A stretch of DNA of 64,000 bases from Escherichia phage KIT01: sequence record AP019521.1, one strand, 5' to 3'. This document shows positions 6,824 through 62,750 of the stretch, in pieces. Numbering within the stretch: the first letter of the stretch is position 1; each line of letters starts with the position of its first letter. Made by a program: the position numbers and the translations under genes. The notes below the pieces were generated by a model. That model ran no database searches. It worked only from the letters and a program-made list of their open reading frames with translations, and was not told the DNA's origin.

Positions 6824-7329
6824 ATTGTTCTCAATTCAATAAAATCTACGAGTTCGGCATGGGATTTGCGGAACATTACTTGGCGGCCACCGATGACAAC
6901 CTCATCTTCCGGTATTTCGTAAACAGCAAGATAGAATCCTTTAGAAGATAATTCAGCACGCTCTTCACGAGTGAACCAACGCATCATATCATACTCGCTG
7001 GCAAAAGCAAAATGGTAGAGGTTAACAAACCAACCTGGAATATAATCATCACAGCCTTCATAATCAGGCTGGTCCCACTTAGTTCTAATGCTTTTATTAG
7101 AATTTTCCACCAACAACTTGTCTTGACCTGGTAGTGGAATATTTTTATTATTGGTATGATGGTGTCTAAAATTAGGTCTGTCGAAACCTACTTCCAATAA
7201 CCAACCTTCACTCCATTCGTCAAATGAGCCTCTATACGGGGTTAATTGGCGGCATTGATGACGAGTGATTGCGATAACATCGCTGTTGTCTAGGATACTG
7301 AACGATGACTCCACTCGATAAATTTTCAT
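6820..7329 (-). CDS. hypothetical protein
   Basis: 169-aa ORF, GAGGAG SD, ATGA overlap with downstream gene. Confidence 0.45.
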   Translation of the reverse strand: MKIYRVESSFSILDNSDVIAITRHQCRQLTPYRGSFDEWSEGWLLEVGFDRPNFRHHHTNNKNIPLPGQDKLLVENSNKSIRTKWDQPDYEGCDDYIPGWFVNLYHFAFASEYDMMRWFTREERAELSSKGFYLAVYEIPEDEVVIGGRQVMFRKSHAELVDFIELRTI

Positions 7330-7333
7330 TTTG

Positions 7334-7385
7334 TTCTCCTCATGTTGATAGGGTAGATAATATCATGTCATGAGGAGAAGTAAAC
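7334..7385 (-). promoter_or_regulatory. early promoter/stem-loop cassette (PeSL-like)
   Basis: gtaaac 7380-7385, 17-nt spacer, -10 at 7357-7362; 11-bp perfect inverted repeat 7334-7344 / 7369-7379 pairing the SD with the promoter spacer. Confidence 0.6.
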
Positions 7386-7389
7386 ACTT

Positions 7390-8064
7390 TTATCGATTTT
7401 TTACACTTAACGGGTCAGGATTCTCAGGGACATCTTCCAGACCTAAGGCATATCGTTGGGCATATTTAAGCATCAAGATATCCTTAGCACAGTCATGGAT
7501 GGAGTCATGGGCAACAAAGCCGTTCAATGTTCCATTAGGCAGAGGACACATGCTCAATCCGCGAGTCAATGAATAGGCTTCAATAGCCGTACGGATATCA
7601 CGTTGGTTCCAGAATTTAACCGGTTCTAATTTGCTGGTATCGATTTCATTCTCAGGAACACCTTCAGAACGATAAGCATCGCGAATAAGGTCGACTAAGA
7701 TAGGAAAGTCGAATGACATTCCACGACACCACATCTGTGATTTCCATTGGTCCACTTCGTTTTTACGGCAGTATTCCAGGAAATTACCGAGACCGATAGA
7801 AGTGCTCACATCCATTTCGGATGGAGCCAGGTTTTTACGTGCTTCAGGCCCTTGCTCTTTCCACCACTGCAATGTGCTTTTAGAAAACAGTCGTCTATCA
7901 CGTTGAGAAGCGAGGTCAAATTTAATACGAAGGCCTCGTTGAGTAAGCTCTTCAAACGATTCTACTACCTCTGGATTAGGGTCATAAGCAATTACTGCAA
8001 GGTCGATAACCGCCGCATTTTGGGTTGTGGCAAAGGTTTCGAAGTCAATAATTATATCTTTCAT
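7390..8064 (-). CDS. dexA: exonuclease A (DEDDh 3'-5' exonuclease)
   Basis: 224 aa; IIDFETF...AVIDLAVIA..DPNPEVVE...CRGMSFDFPILVDLIRD...FVAHDSIHDCAKDILM matches T4 DexA as recalled. Confidence 0.85.
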   Translation of the reverse strand: MKDIIIDFETFATTQNAAVIDLAVIAYDPNPEVVESFEELTQRGLRIKFDLASQRDRRLFSKSTLQWWKEQGPEARKNLAPSEMDVSTSIGLGNFLEYCRKNEVDQWKSQMWCRGMSFDFPILVDLIRDAYRSEGVPENEIDTSKLEPVKFWNQRDIRTAIEAYSLTRGLSMCPLPNGTLNGFVAHDSIHDCAKDILMLKYAQRYALGLEDVPENPDPLSVKNR

Positions 8065-11445: not shown

Positions 11446-11477
11446 AGATAGTACCACAAGCTTCCTTGCCTGTAAAC
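11446..11477 (-). promoter_or_regulatory. early promoter cassette
   Basis: gtaaac 11472-11477 with gttgatag...atagta core upstream of modA-like gene. Confidence 0.5.
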
Positions 11478-12046
11478 TAAAAATTCAACATTTTTAAATG
11501 AATTGTTTTGTACTCGATGTCATACGGGTCTCTTTTGATGGTTTCGATTGCAACAATCTCAAATCGTGATAGGCTGGAGACCATGAACTCACATTCAGTT
11601 TCGACCATATCATAGAGGTCAATACGAGTTTCATCAATTTCAAGTTCATCTACATTCCCAGCAAGAACAAGGTCGATAGCATGATTGTAGTAGTCGAAAA
11701 TGAACGGTGCATTCCTGAGACTTAAAATGGTTTTGGTTCCGTATTCCCATGACCCTGCGAACTGACGAGCCTGAGAGTATTGTGTACTAAAAGAAGTAAC
11801 TCGACCAGGAGACCATTGACACCCTACTGAAAGGAGCTCTAATTGCTCAAGTTCTCTGGTGGTAATCCCACGATACAACTCTACCGGAACCGCTGAAGTA
11901 ACATGCTTACGAACCAGTTTGTCGAGGTCGTAATGGAAGTTAGGGTCCTTTTTAGCATCCAGACATTTTTCTAAAAGATTCTGTTCATGTTTTGAGAATT
12001 TGGAATTGATTCGGTCTTGGTAAAGACATTTTTGTTCGATGTTCAT
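11477..12046 (-). CDS. ADP-ribosyltransferase, ModA/ModB-like paralog
   Basis: 189 aa; LYRGIT, SFSTQYSQARQFA; tandem with 10808..11422. Confidence 0.6.
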   Translation of the reverse strand: MNIEQKCLYQDRINSKFSKHEQNLLEKCLDAKKDPNFHYDLDKLVRKHVTSAVPVELYRGITTRELEQLELLSVGCQWSPGRVTSFSTQYSQARQFAGSWEYGTKTILSLRNAPFIFDYYNHAIDLVLAGNVDELEIDETRIDLYDMVETECEFMVSSLSRFEIVAIETIKRDPYDIEYKTIHLKMLNF

Positions 12047-12061
12047 ATGACCTCCAGTGAT

Positions 12062-12099
12062 TTAGAGGTCATTATAACATGAAGGGAGGAGGTGTAAAC
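12062..12099 (-). promoter_or_regulatory. early promoter
   Basis: gtaaac 12094-12099, 17-nt spacer, TATAAT (plus attata 12071-12076) upstream of modB-like gene. Confidence 0.55.
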
Positions 12100-13954: not shown

Positions 13955-13982
13955 ACGAAAAAAGGAACCCGAAGGTTCCTTA
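13955..13982 (-). terminator. intrinsic terminator after soc
   Basis: minus GGAACC-UUCG-GGUUCC followed by UUUUUU. Confidence 0.6.
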
Positions 13983-39504: not shown

Positions 39505-39830
39505 TTCGCTGCCTTAACAATTTTCAGGTCAACGAATTTTTTCTTACGTTGGTTTTTCATACGACGGATAGTTTTATCCGTGATTTCACCAGGGGCCCAA
39601 GCTTTAGATTCAACACCAAATGCAGCGACATCGAATTCATCAAGGATATATTGAACCAGGATTTCACGAATACCGTTCTTACCAATTTTCTGGTCTTTAG
39701 AGTGCATGATTGGTAATAGTTCAGCAACCCATTGGTCAAGAACCTGAGGAGTTACAAAACCGGTTTTCATCAGTTCGTTTACTTTATCGAAAGCGAAAGA
39801 GTTCAGTACGTTTTTAATAGCTTGTGACAT
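39501..39830 (-). CDS. hypothetical protein
   Basis: start set at MSQAIKNV after GAGGAAA SD, downstream of early promoter cassette. Confidence 0.4.
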   Translation of the reverse strand: MSQAIKNVLNSFAFDKVNELMKTGFVTPQVLDQWVAELLPIMHSKDQKIGKNGIREILVQYILDEFDVAAFGVESKAWAPGEITDKTIRRMKNQRKKKFVDLKIVKAAK

Positions 39831-39864
39831 AATAATTTCCTCAGTTTTAAAGTTATAATCCGTA

Positions 39865-39899
39865 GGACCATTATACTCTGGTCCCAAGAGTTTGTAAAC
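39865..39899 (-). promoter_or_regulatory. early promoter cassette
   Basis: gtaaac 39894-39899; -10 TATAAT flanked by ggacca/tggtcc inverted repeat. Confidence 0.5.
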
Positions 39900-40789: not shown

Positions 40790-40968
40790 AATTTGATTTC
40801 CTTAGCTATTGAACAAAACACGCTACGGTCACATACCATCATTGGAATATTTCTATGGTCTAGTACACGATACCATACGTCTGAATCGCTAGCAGCAATT
40901 ACACGAACCGCACGCCCATTTACCAAATAATACTGGTCGGCTTTAATTTCTTTATCTTGGATAGTCAT
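40786..40968 (-). CDS. hypothetical protein
   Basis: 60-aa ORF behind early promoter cassette. Confidence 0.4.
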   Translation of the reverse strand: MTIQDKEIKADQYYLVNGRAVRVIAASDSDVWYRVLDHRNIPMMVCDRSVFCSIAKEIKL

Positions 40969-40971
40969 AAT

Positions 40972-41026
40972 GTTCTCCTCATGTGTTGGTAGGATAGACT
41001 ATAACACGTGAGGAGAGGAAGTAAAC
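40972..41026 (-). promoter_or_regulatory. early promoter/stem-loop cassette
   Basis: gtaaac 41021-41026; arms cctcatgtgtt / aacacgtgagg (1 mismatch) pair SD with spacer. Confidence 0.55.
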
Positions 41027-41027
41027 A

Positions 41028-41345
41028 CTAATCTTCAATTAAATCTCGGTCATAACCAAGTTCAATCAAAAGTGATTTGAAGGTAGGAATATTTTCTATT
41101 TTCTTATTATCGACAAATATGACAGGATAGCGTATCGCTAAGCTCTTGAAGCCGGCACGTTTGGCCAATGATACTATAAGAGGCTTGTCATATACTGCGC
41201 CTGACGGCGTCTGGTTAATCACGGGATAGAAAGTATGTGGGATAGAAAGGGAATTTAGGAGCGATAGAACTGCAATGCACCCTGGACAGCGCATGACTGT
41301 CTCAGGGATGCCGTAGATTTCGATTTTAGTTAACTTTTGGTCCAC
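41028..41345 (-). CDS. glutaredoxin/thioredoxin-like protein (NrdH-like)
   Basis: 105 aa; CPGC active-site-like motif near N-terminus. Confidence 0.5.
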   Translation of the reverse strand: MDQKLTKIEIYGIPETVMRCPGCIAVLSLLNSLSIPHTFYPVINQTPSGAVYDKPLIVSLAKRAGFKSLAIRYPVIFVDNKKIENIPTFKSLLIELGYDRDLIED

Positions 41346-42429: not shown

Positions 42430-42464
42430 AATAAACCCTTACCATTATTAGATAAGGGTATTTA

Positions 42465-47763: not shown

Positions 47764-48288
47764 TTATGCGAGAACCGTCTTTAAACGCTCTTCAAATTTC
47801 TGAAGCAGAGCTTGGCGTTCAGCTCGTTGTGATTTGTACTGCTCGATACGACCTGAAGTGAGGGCGTACTGTTCGTTTACTGATTCCCGCATGAATTCAG
47901 GAATCTCTTTACAAGCTTTGATTTCGTCAAACTTATCAATAACAGCTTGTTGTTCAGCAATCAGATTATCGAAATAAGCGATATCAGATTTAACGTTTGC
48001 CAGGTCGGATTCGGTAGGCATTAAACGTTTGTTACGTTCAGCTTGATAAGCCTGATTGGTTTCACGACTCCAGTGAAGAGTACGTTTTTTGTTAGTGTTT
48101 TTATAGAGCTCTACAATACCAACTGAATCGATGACTGCAATCCAGTTCCAACGGCTTTTGTAAATCTCTCCTCCGGATACGGTAATCTCATTACCACAAG
48201 CAACATCGTTAAAGAACTTGCTTTGTTTTTCAGATTTGAAATTACCGTTGTTGAAATTAATCAGTGAAAAAATATCTTTAGCGTTCAT
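47764..48288 (-). CDS. hypothetical protein with C-terminal coiled coil
   Basis: 174 aa; tail ...RAERQALLQKFEERLKTVLA. Confidence 0.45.
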   Translation of the reverse strand: MNAKDIFSLINFNNGNFKSEKQSKFFNDVACGNEITVSGGEIYKSRWNWIAVIDSVGIVELYKNTNKKRTLHWSRETNQAYQAERNKRLMPTESDLANVKSDIAYFDNLIAEQQAVIDKFDEIKACKEIPEFMRESVNEQYALTSGRIEQYKSQRAERQALLQKFEERLKTVLA

Positions 48289-48294
48289 GATAAC

Positions 48295-48343
48295 CTCCAG
48301 TAGTTGATAGGTCTATAGTATCATTTCTACTGGAGATGTAAAC
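48295..48343 (-). promoter_or_regulatory. early promoter/stem-loop cassette
   Basis: gttgataggtctatagtatca core; gtaaac 48338-48343; 9-bp arms ctccagtag 48295-48303 / ctactggag 48327-48335. Confidence 0.6.
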
Positions 48344-49760: not shown

Positions 49761-49784
49761 CCAAAAAGGCCCGAAGGCCTTTTA
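49761..49784 (-). terminator. intrinsic terminator after nucleotidyltransferase-fold gene
   Basis: minus GGCC-UUCG-GGCC followed by UUUUU. Confidence 0.5.
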
Positions 49785-52631: not shown

Positions 52632-52662
52632 CGAAAAAAGGTCCCACCGAAGTGAGACCTTT
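52632..52662 (-). terminator. intrinsic terminator
   Basis: minus GGUCUCAC-UUCG-GUGGGACC followed by UUUUUU. Confidence 0.55.
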
Positions 52663-56028: not shown

Positions 56029-56487
56029 TTAAAGATAGATTACTTTCGTGCTGGTTTTACCTTCTAAACGTTTAGAGTTAACAAATGCCATACGACATTT
56101 AAGGGAATATCCTTTATCAGGATGTTTACGGTCTACGGTCATACCCAACCATAAGGTTTTATCGGTAATTTCGAGACGCAACGGGCGATACACTTTACCA
56201 GGGACAATTTCGGATTCAACATCAGGCAGAGGTTCCTGGATTAAGAATTCATGAATTTCTTTAACATGGATATGGAGTTGCTTGAATAAAGCAAAAACGT
56301 ATTTTTCGTCGATTTCACGTTGGATAGCACGGTCCAACAAGTGATTAGAGTACTTAATAAAGAAGGCTGGGACTCCGCTCTTAATGGCGGCTTTTTTGAT
56401 GGACGCATTCAGTTCACGGAATTCGGTTTCGAACTGACGACGTAATTTGTTGCGGCGGATGAATACTTCTGAATTAATTTCTGACAT
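56029..56487 (-). CDS. regB: endoribonuclease RegB
   Basis: 152 aa; EVFIRRNKLRR.FE.EFR..N, HLLDRAIQREIDE.YVF, RLEITD..LWLG matches T4 RegB. Confidence 0.9.
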   Translation of the reverse strand: MSEINSEVFIRRNKLRRQFETEFRELNASIKKAAIKSGVPAFFIKYSNHLLDRAIQREIDEKYVFALFKQLHIHVKEIHEFLIQEPLPDVESEIVPGKVYRPLRLEITDKTLWLGMTVDRKHPDKGYSLKCRMAFVNSKRLEGKTSTKVIYL

Positions 56488-56493
56488 TTTGTA

Positions 56494-56544
56494 ATCTCCT
56501 GTAGATGATAGGTCTATAGTACCACGTCTACAGGAGATGTAAAC
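56494..56544 (-). promoter_or_regulatory. early promoter/stem-loop cassette upstream of regB
   Basis: gtaaac 56539-56544; 12-bp perfect inverted repeat 56494-56505 / 56527-56538 containing the regB SD. Confidence 0.6.
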
Positions 56545-59148: not shown

Positions 59149-59208
59149 TTTAGTGTTCTCCATGTTTGTATGAGAACACTATATCACAGCTATTGTAAAA
59201 GTAAACTG

Positions 59209-60472: not shown

Positions 60473-60505
60473 AATACCTCCTGAGTATAGGAGGTATTTA
60501 TATCA
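60470..60505 (-). promoter_or_regulatory. late promoter TATAAATA plus SD-sequestering hairpin for lysozyme gene e
   Basis: minus strand reads TATAAATACCTCCTATACTCAGGAGGTATTATG: arms ACCTCC / GGAGGT pair across the SD. Confidence 0.6.
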
Positions 60506-61182: not shown

Positions 61183-61766
61183 TTACGGCATTCCTTAATA
61201 AAAGAGTTTAATGTATTTTTCTTGGTGATATCATCATATACCTTTTTAACTTTAGAAATACGAAAAGGTACTTCAATAACGGAGGTCCATAAAAATGATG
61301 CGATAAGACCTAAGATAGCAGCAGACATCGCTGAAGCGAATACACAAATAGGCAGGTCATTATCTGTTGTCAGGAAAAACCCTAGGAGTAGGAAAAATAA
61401 TATACCCATCCAAACATAGAATCTAGAACTCACCAATTTGTCGTATTCATCACTCCAGGCACGGAAGCCGTATTTTTTGCTATAACAAATCAATGGGTCT
61501 GGAGTCTGTTCTTTATGTGGTTCTGGTTGCCAGCCGTTTACGATATAGCCCATTTTATATTCCTCAATTAAAAGCCGTTTCATTTCGGCAGTACAACCTG
61601 ACCAATCTATTGTACTGGCTGAAATTCCTTCATCACCGTCATCGATATTTCGCCAGGACTTTTTAATAATCATAGTCTCACCACTTGGGATAATAATTCC
61701 GGCATTTTCCGACCGACGGATGAAGTTTGCATCAATACCCATACACCCAGGTTCATAAAGGGCCAT
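61179..61766 (-). CDS. membrane protein
   Basis: 195 aa; two C-terminal hydrophobic helices. Confidence 0.45.
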   Translation of the reverse strand: MALYEPGCMGIDANFIRRSENAGIIIPSGETMIIKKSWRNIDDGDEGISASTIDWSGCTAEMKRLLIEEYKMGYIVNGWQPEPHKEQTPDPLICYSKKYGFRAWSDEYDKLVSSRFYVWMGILFFLLLGFFLTTDNDLPICVFASAMSAAILGLIASFLWTSVIEVPFRISKVKKVYDDITKKNTLNSFIKECRK

Positions 61767-62455
61767 TACCAGCCCTCCATAGGGAATTCCAGATATACTT
61801 GAGCATTAACACGGATTTCATTAGTAATCTTTTTAACACGGTCTGTATTACGAGACACACGACCAAACCAGCGCCAACCGTTACTTACTGCACGAGAACC
61901 TGTATGCCATGTCTGCCAATCAAACTGGAGCAACGTGCGGTCAGGAGCATCCCACTTGGTTAATTCATTGGACTCAATTTTTTCCAGAACTTCTTTATGC
62001 CACTGGCGATAGATAAGTTCGCCTTCAGGAATCTGACTGAACTGTGCAGTTCCGGTTGCAAAATGAGTAGGACACACATCAGCGTTAACAAGACCAAGAA
62101 TATGTTCAGAATGGTATCGAGGATTATCATAATCAGGTTGCCCTGCGGTAATAAAGTGTTGACCAACCGGAATATCCGGACGTGGTACATCATCATGGTG
62201 GAAGCCTGGAATTGCAGGGTACCAGCCAGGCATTAACATGTGTACACGGGAATCAAATACAATATCAGGGCCACATTGCCAATCTTCAGGCAGGTTTTCA
62301 ATAAAGCTACGAGTAATAGGACCACCGTGTTTATGAGCAAAATAAGCATCGCAATTAAAGAACATAGGCTCATTTTTAATCATACCATTACTGATATCTT
62401 GAGCAAAATTACCTACTATAGAAGCTTTAGAATTAAAAGTTTTCGGACCGTTCAT
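61766..62455 (-). CDS. hypothetical protein (possible metal-dependent enzyme; His-rich motifs)
   Basis: 229 aa; GFHHDDVP ... YHSEH ... FGRVSR could be an HxD..H..RxS 2OG-Fe(II) oxygenase-like arrangement but this is speculative. Confidence 0.4.
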   Translation of the reverse strand: MNGPKTFNSKASIVGNFAQDISNGMIKNEPMFFNCDAYFAHKHGGPITRSFIENLPEDWQCGPDIVFDSRVHMLMPGWYPAIPGFHHDDVPRPDIPVGQHFITAGQPDYDNPRYHSEHILGLVNADVCPTHFATGTAQFSQIPEGELIYRQWHKEVLEKIESNELTKWDAPDRTLLQFDWQTWHTGSRAVSNGWRWFGRVSRNTDRVKKITNEIRVNAQVYLEFPMEGW

Positions 62456-62704: not shown

Positions 62705-62750
62705 TGTTTTGATAGGTCTATAGTATCACACCTATAGACCTTGTACACTG
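62705..62750 (-). promoter_or_regulatory. early promoter cassette, variant -35
   Basis: ttgataggtctatagtatca core; -35 reads GTGTAC rather than GTTTAC. Confidence 0.4.

Follow-up and report, generated by a model that had tools for sequence, protein, structure and literature searches.

Hairpins between promoter spacer and Shine–Dalgarno sequence in early-promoter cassettes of the T4-like Escherichia phage KIT01: candidate promoter-selective translational gates

In bacteriophage T4, the genes e, soc, 49 and I-TevI share an arrangement in which a hairpin covers the Shine–Dalgarno sequence (SD) and a promoter lies inside that hairpin; the promoters concerned are always late promoters (PMC3014915). 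A second class of structured promoter regions, the promoter-early stem-loops (PeSLs), has been published for the phages RB49/phi1, PST/T4 and nt-1/KVP40, with stems to which a role as terminators or attenuators and in recombination has been ascribed (Arbiol 2010, PMC2839356; Comeau 2014, PMC4122927). The same papers name phage JS98 as carrying PeSL-like sequences. Here we analyze a stretch of 64,000 nucleotides from Escherichia phage KIT01 (AP019521.1), referred to as the window, in which the spacer between the -35 and -10 elements of four early promoters is complementary to the SD of the gene downstream. The phage is T4-like, with nearly all genes of the window on the minus strand, and a 3-kb stretch around the site before motB.2 shows 93–95% identity to Escherichia phages of the JS98/JS10 group (Dhakavirus, Tevenvirinae). 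By analogy, we read the four sites as a predicted early-promoter version of the translational gate of T4 e, soc, 49 and I-TevI.

The cassettes that contain these promoters follow a common order on the minus strand: an AT-rich stretch, a -35 hexamer (GTTTAC), a 17–18-nt spacer ending in TGn, and a -10 hexamer (TAnnAT), followed after about 7 nt by a conserved AUCAAC, a GAGGAGA-type SD and the AUG. We curated 22 early-promoter cassettes in the window, all on the minus strand. Being intergenic and combining an AT-rich region, sigma-70-like -35 and -10 boxes, an SD and an ATG, they belong to the PeSL class, of which the wider sample holds 289 members. For the comparison of related sites, we used IMG/VR loci that code for relatives of the proteins downstream of the four sites, together with 80 kb of T4. 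A pattern scan of IMG/VR gave 120 stretches from about two dozen T4-like genomes, which together with the window and T4 amount to the 289 cassettes; grouping at 85% similarity reduced these to 134 clusters. Transcript start sites were placed from sigma-70 spacing. The T4 records NC_000866 and AF158101, in which promoter and start-site annotation was sought, contain none, so that the start sites remain predictions. In most early cassettes of KIT01 and T4, AUCAAC stands at the predicted start, 7–8 nt past the -10 hexamer (for example at 7344-7349 and 48303-48308). Rfam 15, searched at the gathering score, returned zero matches across the whole window.

Spacer–SD complementarity is present in the cassettes that precede motB.2 (cassette 7385), regB (56544), a 174-residue nrdC.8-like gene (48343) and an open reading frame (ORF) of 60 residues (41026). 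The repeats are perfect over 11 bp before motB.2 (7334-7344 / 7369-7379; 16 nt at 88% when extended), over 12 bp before regB (56494-56505 / 56527-56538) and over 9 bp before the nrdC.8-like gene (48295-48303 / 48327-48335), where a single G·U pair lengthens the helix to 11 bp (48293-48303 / 48327-48337). Before the 60-residue ORF, the repeat spans 14 nt with one C·A mismatch (40974-40987 / 41003-41016). The initial annotation of the window had listed inverted repeats at these four places, and all of them are real; at the fourth, the arm 40974-40984 was correctly located, but its partner is 41006-41016 and not 41003-41013, a shift of 3 nt that still falls inside the real arm. The arms also lie where that annotation had put them once the minus strand is read. 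At all four sites, the 5' arm occupies the start of the spacer, the 3' arm covers the SD, and the loop holds the -10 hexamer together with the predicted start, which is located 7–8 nt past the -10 and 5–7 nt ahead of the 3' arm.

To gauge the pairing against chance, each spacer was also matched to the SD regions of all the other cassettes, a control that retains composition and shared motifs. Watson–Crick runs of at least 9 were found in 3 of the 22 cognate combinations of the window, whereas only 4 of 462 non-cognate combinations reached this length (permutation p ~7e-4). The mean duplex energy of the cognate combinations was equaled in none of 20,000 permutations (p < 5e-5).

Predicted folding separates the two kinds of transcript that can cover these sites. 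Read-through RNA folds at -20.5 to -26.3 kcal/mol at the four sites, with z values of -2.5 to -6.8 relative to dinucleotide shuffles, whereas leaders that begin at the predicted start have folding energies of 0 to -2.3 kcal/mol. The predicted probability (P) that the SD is unpaired is 0.00 in read-through RNA and 0.25–0.68 in promoter-initiated RNA, in agreement with the difference that the initial annotation had anticipated. In the motB.2 hairpin, the AUG is predicted to be hidden as well as the SD. A buried SD (P < 0.05) was obtained for 6 of the 22 cassette genes and for 6 of the 92 other genes of the window (p = 0.011), and the lysozyme gene e is one of the latter six. Its hairpin, which is weaker (-14.5 kcal/mol), carries the late promoter TATAAATA in the 5' arm; the parallel that had been drawn with this gene is apt (PMC3014915).

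Two further observations concern buried start regions elsewhere in the window. The orthologue of gene 49 (endonuclease VII, 157 residues; gene start 42429) has an SD- and AUG-burying hairpin, ACCCUUAUC...GGUAAGGGU, at 42435-42459 on the minus strand. Its 5' flank contains the late-promoter-like TAATAAATA, an arrangement that is classical for this gene in T4. Boxes resembling TATAAATA occur only at the e and 49 sites among the compared hairpins. At gene start 61766 (about 61740-61790, minus strand), an SD GGAGG and the AUG are predicted to be buried by the gene's own first codons in a local fold of -22 kcal/mol; no early cassette is present there.

The coordinates of the hairpins and of related features are collected in Table 1. 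The product of regB matches the endoribonuclease family phrog_1323 (E = 4e-71). The SDs of the regB, nrdC.8-like and 60-residue ORF sites deviate from the published RegB/S1 consensus at one to three positions. In the modA/B-like cassette, ACCUCC in the spacer provides an alternative partner for the SD.

Table 1. Positions of the spacer–SD hairpins, the lysozyme hairpin and related cassettes in the window
Feature	Position	Strand	Remarks
motB.2 cassette, -35 GTTTAC	7380..7385	-	dexA stop codon (7390-7392) 4 nt upstream
motB.2 5' arm (anti-SD) UUCUCCUCAUG	7369..7379	-	occupies first 11 nt of spacer
motB.2 -10 TATTAT, preceded by TGa	7357..7362	-	in loop; predicted start A ~7349 (AUCAAC...)
motB.2 3' arm CAUGAGGAGAA	7334..7344	-	contains SD; AUG 7327-7329
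motB.2 SD plus 7 nt GGAGAACAAAA	7331-7341	-	exact match to published RegB/S1 consensus GGAGRAYARAA
motB.2 outer-helix strand UCGAUAAA	7389..7396	-	end of dexA including stop codon; pairs with 7315-7322
motB.2 outer-helix partner UUUAUCGA	7315..7322	-	motB.2 codons 3-6, within coding sequence; 8 bp
regB 5' arm AUCUCCUGUAGA	56527..56538	-	in spacer; -35 56539-56544, -10 56516-56521, predicted start ~56509
regB 3' arm UCUACAGGAGAU	56494..56505	-	contains regB SD; AUG 56485-56487
nrdC.8-like gene (174 residues) 5' arm AUCUCCAGUAG	48327..48337	-	in spacer; -35 48338-48343, -10 48315-48320, predicted start ~48308
nrdC.8-like gene 3' arm CUACUGGAGGU	48293..48303	-	contains SD; AUG 48286-48288
60-residue ORF 5' arm UCUCCUCACGUGUU	41003..41016	-	in spacer; -35 41021-41026, -10 40998-41003, predicted start ~40990
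60-residue ORF 3' arm AACACAUGAGGAGA	40974..40987	-	contains SD; AUG 40966-40968
Lysozyme (e) hairpin AAUACCUCCU/AGGAGGUAUU	60473..60498	-	arms 60489-60498 / 60473-60482; known T4 mechanism
e late promoter TATAAATA	60495-60502	-	overlaps 5' arm of e hairpin
ADP-ribosylase (modA/B-like) cassette, related case	12039..12080	-	SD GGAGG paired by UGACCUCU directly 3' of -10
denV cassette, related case	59151..59181	-	10-bp hairpin UAGUGUUCUC/GAGAACACUA, -10/start-site region to SD

The arms are retained in close relatives, and distant orthologues retain the spacer-to-SD pairing with other arm sequences. At motB.2, T4 and its group have the arms UUCCUCGGUUAG/CUACUGAGGAUA. The regB arms are UUUUCCUCUUGACUG/CAGUUAAGAGGAGAA in T4, forming 15 bp with two G·U pairs, and UUUCUCCUCUUUAUG/CAUAAAGAGGAGAAA in lineage L027, a perfect 15 bp. 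The same architecture is found at T4 denV and nrdC.8, and the four T4 sites (motB.2, regB, denV and nrdC.8) have folding energies between -20 and -32 kcal/mol and z values of -3.4 to -7.0. The outer helix of motB.2 is also kept in T4, with a U-A to A-U change whose 3' partner change is synonymous (CGA to CGU).

Among 13 cassettes of common geometry, 6 of the 12 stem pairs have changed on both sides. The covariation score of these cassettes is 0.304, compared with 0.124 ± 0.029 after shuffling (0 of 500 shuffles reach the observed value); sliding the partner yields no more than 0.068. Pairing has been kept amid changes on both sides, and the description of the repeats as compensatory in the initial annotation therefore holds: arm sequences that vary while complementarity is kept are seen in the cognate versus non-cognate comparison, in the pairs changed on both sides and in the T4-like orthologues. 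The usable covariation signal comes from paralogous cassettes and distant orthologues; very close relatives, with 1 compensatory, 5 G·U, 3 A·C and 10 other stem changes, provide too few events. Variation per column among close relatives is 6.3% in the stem versus 16.8% in the loop (p = 0.001), and this lower stem variation is, as read from the sequences, purifying selection. From one phage to another, near-identical cassettes can also precede different genes. In T4, the denV cassette (L050:15355-15413) has the arms of regB in the window (56494-56544), and the motB cassette (L049:7141-7215) resembles the 39899 cassette of the window (39830-39899), a distribution compatible with cassette exchange of the PeSL type.

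Several features bear on the level at which the hairpins act. Co-oriented upstream ORFs stop 1–6 nt ahead of the -35 hexamer, and a terminator scan made no call at any of the four hairpins, with no U-run following the stems, so that read-through RNA is expected. Between the upstream stop and the -35 of the four sites, the scan gave one weak match only, at 41045-41060 before the 41026 cassette. The four stems have loops of 15–24 nt, A/U-rich pairs, and the tails CAAAAUG, UACAAAAUG, UAUCAUG and ACAUUAUG. Given their long loops, the lack of a U-run and their absence from the terminator scan, we rejected Rho-independent termination as an explanation of these four stems.

In the 25 of 134 clusters that stand behind a canonical terminator with UUCG hairpin and U-run, the embedded structure is at the level of the null (-7.8 versus -11.0 kcal/mol, p = 0.014). 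The weakness of embedded hairpins behind terminators suggests that they act on the read-through transcript and not on the promoter DNA. Internal stem mismatches, scored on the sense strand, comprise 11 G·U versus 3 A·C (p = 0.057), and those at helix edges 23 versus 14. In the variant L042, a change of CAC to UGU in the 5' arm gives U·G, G·U and U-A, which can pair in sense RNA only. As far as sequence comparison can tell, the dependence on terminators, the G·U bias with the L042 variant, and the conservation of the stem point to read-through RNA of the sense strand.

Intrinsic terminators with a UUCG tetraloop lie directly upstream of four window cassettes on the minus strand, at 52637-52662, 13962-13981 and 49764-49783 and just upstream of 2779. 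The 11477 cassette is a case of its own. Its in-spacer hairpin ACAGGCAAGGAAGCUUGU (11454-11475, minus strand) is followed by a T-rich tail and is called terminator-like by the scan; possibly this is a genuine terminator embedded in a promoter, as published for PeSLs.

We propose, with moderate confidence, that the four sites act as promoter-selective translational gates within T4-type early-promoter cassettes. In this model, an anti-SD tract consisting of a CUCC or CCUC core and 5–9 site-specific bases opens each spacer and would pair with a complementary SD tract 20–25 nt downstream of the -10. RNA from an upstream promoter would cross the cassette, carry both arms and form a hairpin of 11–14 bp (-20 to -26 kcal/mol) in which the SD is hidden. 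RNA from the cassette's own sigma-70 promoter would start in the loop (AUCAAC...) and would thus possess a short open leader and no 5' arm. Translation of regB, motB.2, the nrdC.8-like gene and the 60-residue ORF would then depend on their own early promoters alone and be limited to the opening minutes of infection. In line with this model, the 5' arm lies entirely upstream of the predicted start site in 57 of 57 strong helices of the wider sample.

What is known of T4 provides the setting for such a gate. Early promoters of T4 are turned off 2–3 min after infection (PMC3014915), middle promoters and extended early transcripts continue across these genes, and Rho polarity acts on delayed-early RNA (PMC2988021). 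Untranslated read-through RNA would be exposed to Rho polarity and decay, and would in this respect resemble the "attenuator" half of a PeSL. RegB requires single-stranded GGAG (PMC1702504; PMC3014915); a duplexed GGAG would resist the nuclease, and the exposed GGAG of the short transcript would be its target. In T4, cuts by RegB at the SDs of regB, motB.2 and nrdC.8 have been detected in vivo by primer extension (PMC1702504), which, together with the single-strand requirement, implies that short open transcripts exist in that phage.

A number of points weigh against the gate. All of its functional steps are predictions for KIT01, and ribosome loading during transcription could outrun the folding of a hairpin whose loop measures about 25 nt. 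Furthermore, when the 134 clusters are classed by minimum free energy structure, the main geometry is one in which the partner of the spacer is the -10 hexamer or the discriminator directly 3' of it (68 clusters); the SD is paired in a minority, by the spacer in 16 clusters and by the -10/start-site region in 18. Family-wide, SD accessibility is not lowered further by the cognate spacer (0.31 versus 0.29 with swapped spacers, p = 0.37). Orthologues of regB in three other lineages show a -10-flanking geometry that does not involve the SD, and some cassettes are composites of both; such switching suggests that the conserved need may be for a hairpin and not for a hidden SD. Finally, the preference for G·U over A·C among internal mismatches is, at p = 0.057, no more than suggestive.

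On the accessibility comparison, SD hiding as a general trait of early cassettes was rejected; the extreme tail alone differs, with P < 0.01 in 15% of cognate versus 9% of swapped combinations (p = 0.04). Burial of the SD is the property of a subset, comprising 4–6 of the 22 window cassettes and about 15–25% of the 134 clusters. The sequestration of the SD put forward in the initial annotation is thus right, as a prediction, for the four sites, and does not describe the general function of the stems. Its interpretation is partly supported, and the published PeSL class, into which the elements fall, had not been mentioned. The window shows the same mix of geometries as the wider sample. In its cassettes with the -35 at 62748, 39899, 18263, 17491, 6266 and 5608 (minus strand), the repeats flank the -10 and lie entirely upstream of the predicted start, leaving the SD free.

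The best-surviving alternative is that the hairpins are generic PeSL stem-loops, with the SD as an incidental partner and its hiding as a side effect. Selection would favor any stable intergenic hairpin in read-through RNA and, with only the spacer left free by the promoter elements, the spacer would pair with the nearest fixed G-rich tract, be it the discriminator or the SD. Conceivable roles of the hairpin are attenuation or pausing, stabilization of the upstream cistron at its 3' end after cutting by RegB or RNase E, and insulation. Nearly every cassette indeed has a hairpin with its 5' arm in the spacer, and the commonest type leaves the SD untouched. Overall, the structure contributed by sequence ahead of the predicted start is stronger than in the spacer-swapped null (-10.4 versus -7.7 kcal/mol, p = 1e-7), and embedded structure of -15 kcal/mol or lower occurs in 24% of real versus 4% of spacer-swapped cassettes. 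The alternating geometries of regB, the weakness of hairpins behind a true terminator and the lack of a family-wide excess of SD occlusion fit this view as well. So does one RB49/phi1 stem-loop that was terminator-like in a lacZ assay (PMC2839356), although this assay cannot tell termination from a translational block.

We nevertheless regard an incidental role of the SD as rather unlikely. The four stems lack a U-tract and none is called terminator-like, which does not accord with canonical intrinsic termination. Spacers contain anti-SD 4-mers about three times as often as shuffles do (28 of 134 clusters versus 8.9 ± 2.6), and these tracts are located directly after the -35. Within these 28 anti-SD cassettes, complementarity continues past the core far more with the cognate SD than with non-cognate ones, reaching at least 8 bp in 29% versus 4.5% (0 of 20,000 permutations, p < 5e-5). 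The 3' arms have a bimodal distribution, with one group at the discriminator and another at the SD, and are not dispersed. Moreover, a hairpin of -20 kcal/mol on the SD must affect translation, whatever its selective origin.

Translational coupling appears improbable. Under this model, the downstream SD would stay closed in the hairpin until opened by the ribosome that completes translation of the upstream gene, with output proportional to that gene. The proximity of the upstream stop codons to the -35 is in line with coupling, as is the outer helix of motB.2, which includes the dexA stop codon and whose tier a terminating ribosome must open. The main SD-pairing helix, however, starts 9–13 nt past the upstream stop at the four sites, with a median of 11 over 41 cassettes when negative distances, which reflect a mis-called frame (8 of 41), are disregarded. 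A ribosome with a stop codon in its A site has its unwinding point at roughly +11 to +13. A terminating ribosome should therefore leave this helix closed, which argues against simple coupling, and a promoter inside the hairpin would be needless.

A DNA-level element, namely a cruciform or hairpin in DNA that would serve promoter function or the recombination of PeSL cassettes (mini-circles, modular shuffling) with RNA folding irrelevant, is very improbable: cassettes seem to move, as the denV and motB cassettes of T4 suggest, and recombination between them is documented (PMC2839356, PMC4122927), but recombination calls for cassettes that resemble one another and not for repeats complementary within a single cassette, the arms remain complementary while their sequences diverge from cassette to cassette, G·U exceeds A·C on the sense strand by 11 to 3, and the dependence of the hairpins on a missing upstream terminator is not predicted. 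An antisense or other DNA-level role is likewise disfavored by the G·U bias and the dependence on upstream terminators. An operator for a dimeric protein around the -10 was rejected, as arm sequences vary between cassettes.

Beyond the four sites, we tentatively suggest that T4-type phages, including T4, use the spacer and the discriminator as 5' arms of hairpins that exist only in read-through RNA and that, at a subset of genes (regB, motB.2, nrdC.8, denV and others), translation depends on the promoter of origin. If so, this would constitute a genome-wide layer of translational control that confines proteins to the immediate-early burst and stands in for an intrinsic terminator. A recent omics study of T4 asks why the timing of transcripts and proteins disagrees (PMC9697503), and part of this mismatch could be accounted for in this way. 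The presence of the same architecture at T4 regB, motB.2, denV and nrdC.8 makes the idea directly testable in the model phage.

If the promoter-selective gate works at the four sites, the same DNA would be both promoter spacer and translational operator, and translation would be tied to one of several promoters. T4-like phages would thereby have a compact means of keeping early proteins that could do harm, the RegB nuclease among them, to the first minutes despite later transcripts. It would also represent the early-promoter counterpart of the textbook lysozyme case, and would give a concrete, testable reason for PeSL stem-loops, with their "terminator" half reinterpreted. The combined design of hairpin and promoter could furthermore be a ready part for synthetic promoter-specific expression.

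Compared with known systems, the hairpins have a partial likeness to several. In translational-coupling hairpins, an SD is likewise masked, its partner lying close to where the upstream gene ends; in the present cassettes, the main helix lies 9–13 nt beyond the stop and a promoter is embedded, and the design can be explained without coupling. Canonical T4-like terminators, GC-rich UUCG hairpins with a U-run, are also RNA hairpins at gene boundaries that handle read-through. Embedded hairpins and such terminators appear functionally interchangeable, since cassettes having one lack the other. The four stems differ from them in their long loops, A/U-rich pairs and the CAAAAUG-type sequence that follows in place of a U-run.

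With the PeSLs, the cassettes share a compact intergenic layout, in which an AT-rich stretch precedes a strong sigma-70-like promoter that is accompanied by a stem-loop and followed by an SD and an ATG. They also share the occurrence of many copies in early, hyperplastic regions, and their distribution is compatible with exchange between loci. Published PeSL stems, by contrast, are compact; they lie within the spacer or ahead of the -35, overlap a promoter box, or immediately precede the start site, and the four stems described here lack a U-tract. Pairing of the spacer with the SD is described in neither PeSL paper: the word "translation" is absent from PMC2839356, and the SD is a mere component of the cassette in PMC4122927. 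In the literature we searched, which did not extend to the classical reviews of T4 or to the comparative study of regB, we found no account of an early-promoter spacer paired with an SD; an earlier mention is possible.

The closest likeness in mechanism is to e, soc, 49 and I-TevI of T4, with e and 49 represented in the window itself. In the T4 genes, and by prediction in the present cassettes, a hairpin buries the SD, the AUG or both in long transcripts, and a promoter in the 5' arm or loop gives rise to its own, translatable transcript without the 5' arm. The promoters differ, being early sigma-70 promoters of the form GTTTAC-17-TAnnAT with TGn in the present cassettes and gp55-dependent late promoters (TATAAATA) in the T4 genes. 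The geometry differs as well, since the 5' arm is placed here in the spacer between -35 and -10 and a long loop of about 25 nt holds the -10 and the predicted start. The predicted timing is reversed: the T4 hairpins delay translation to late times, whereas those described here would restrict it to the earliest minutes of infection.

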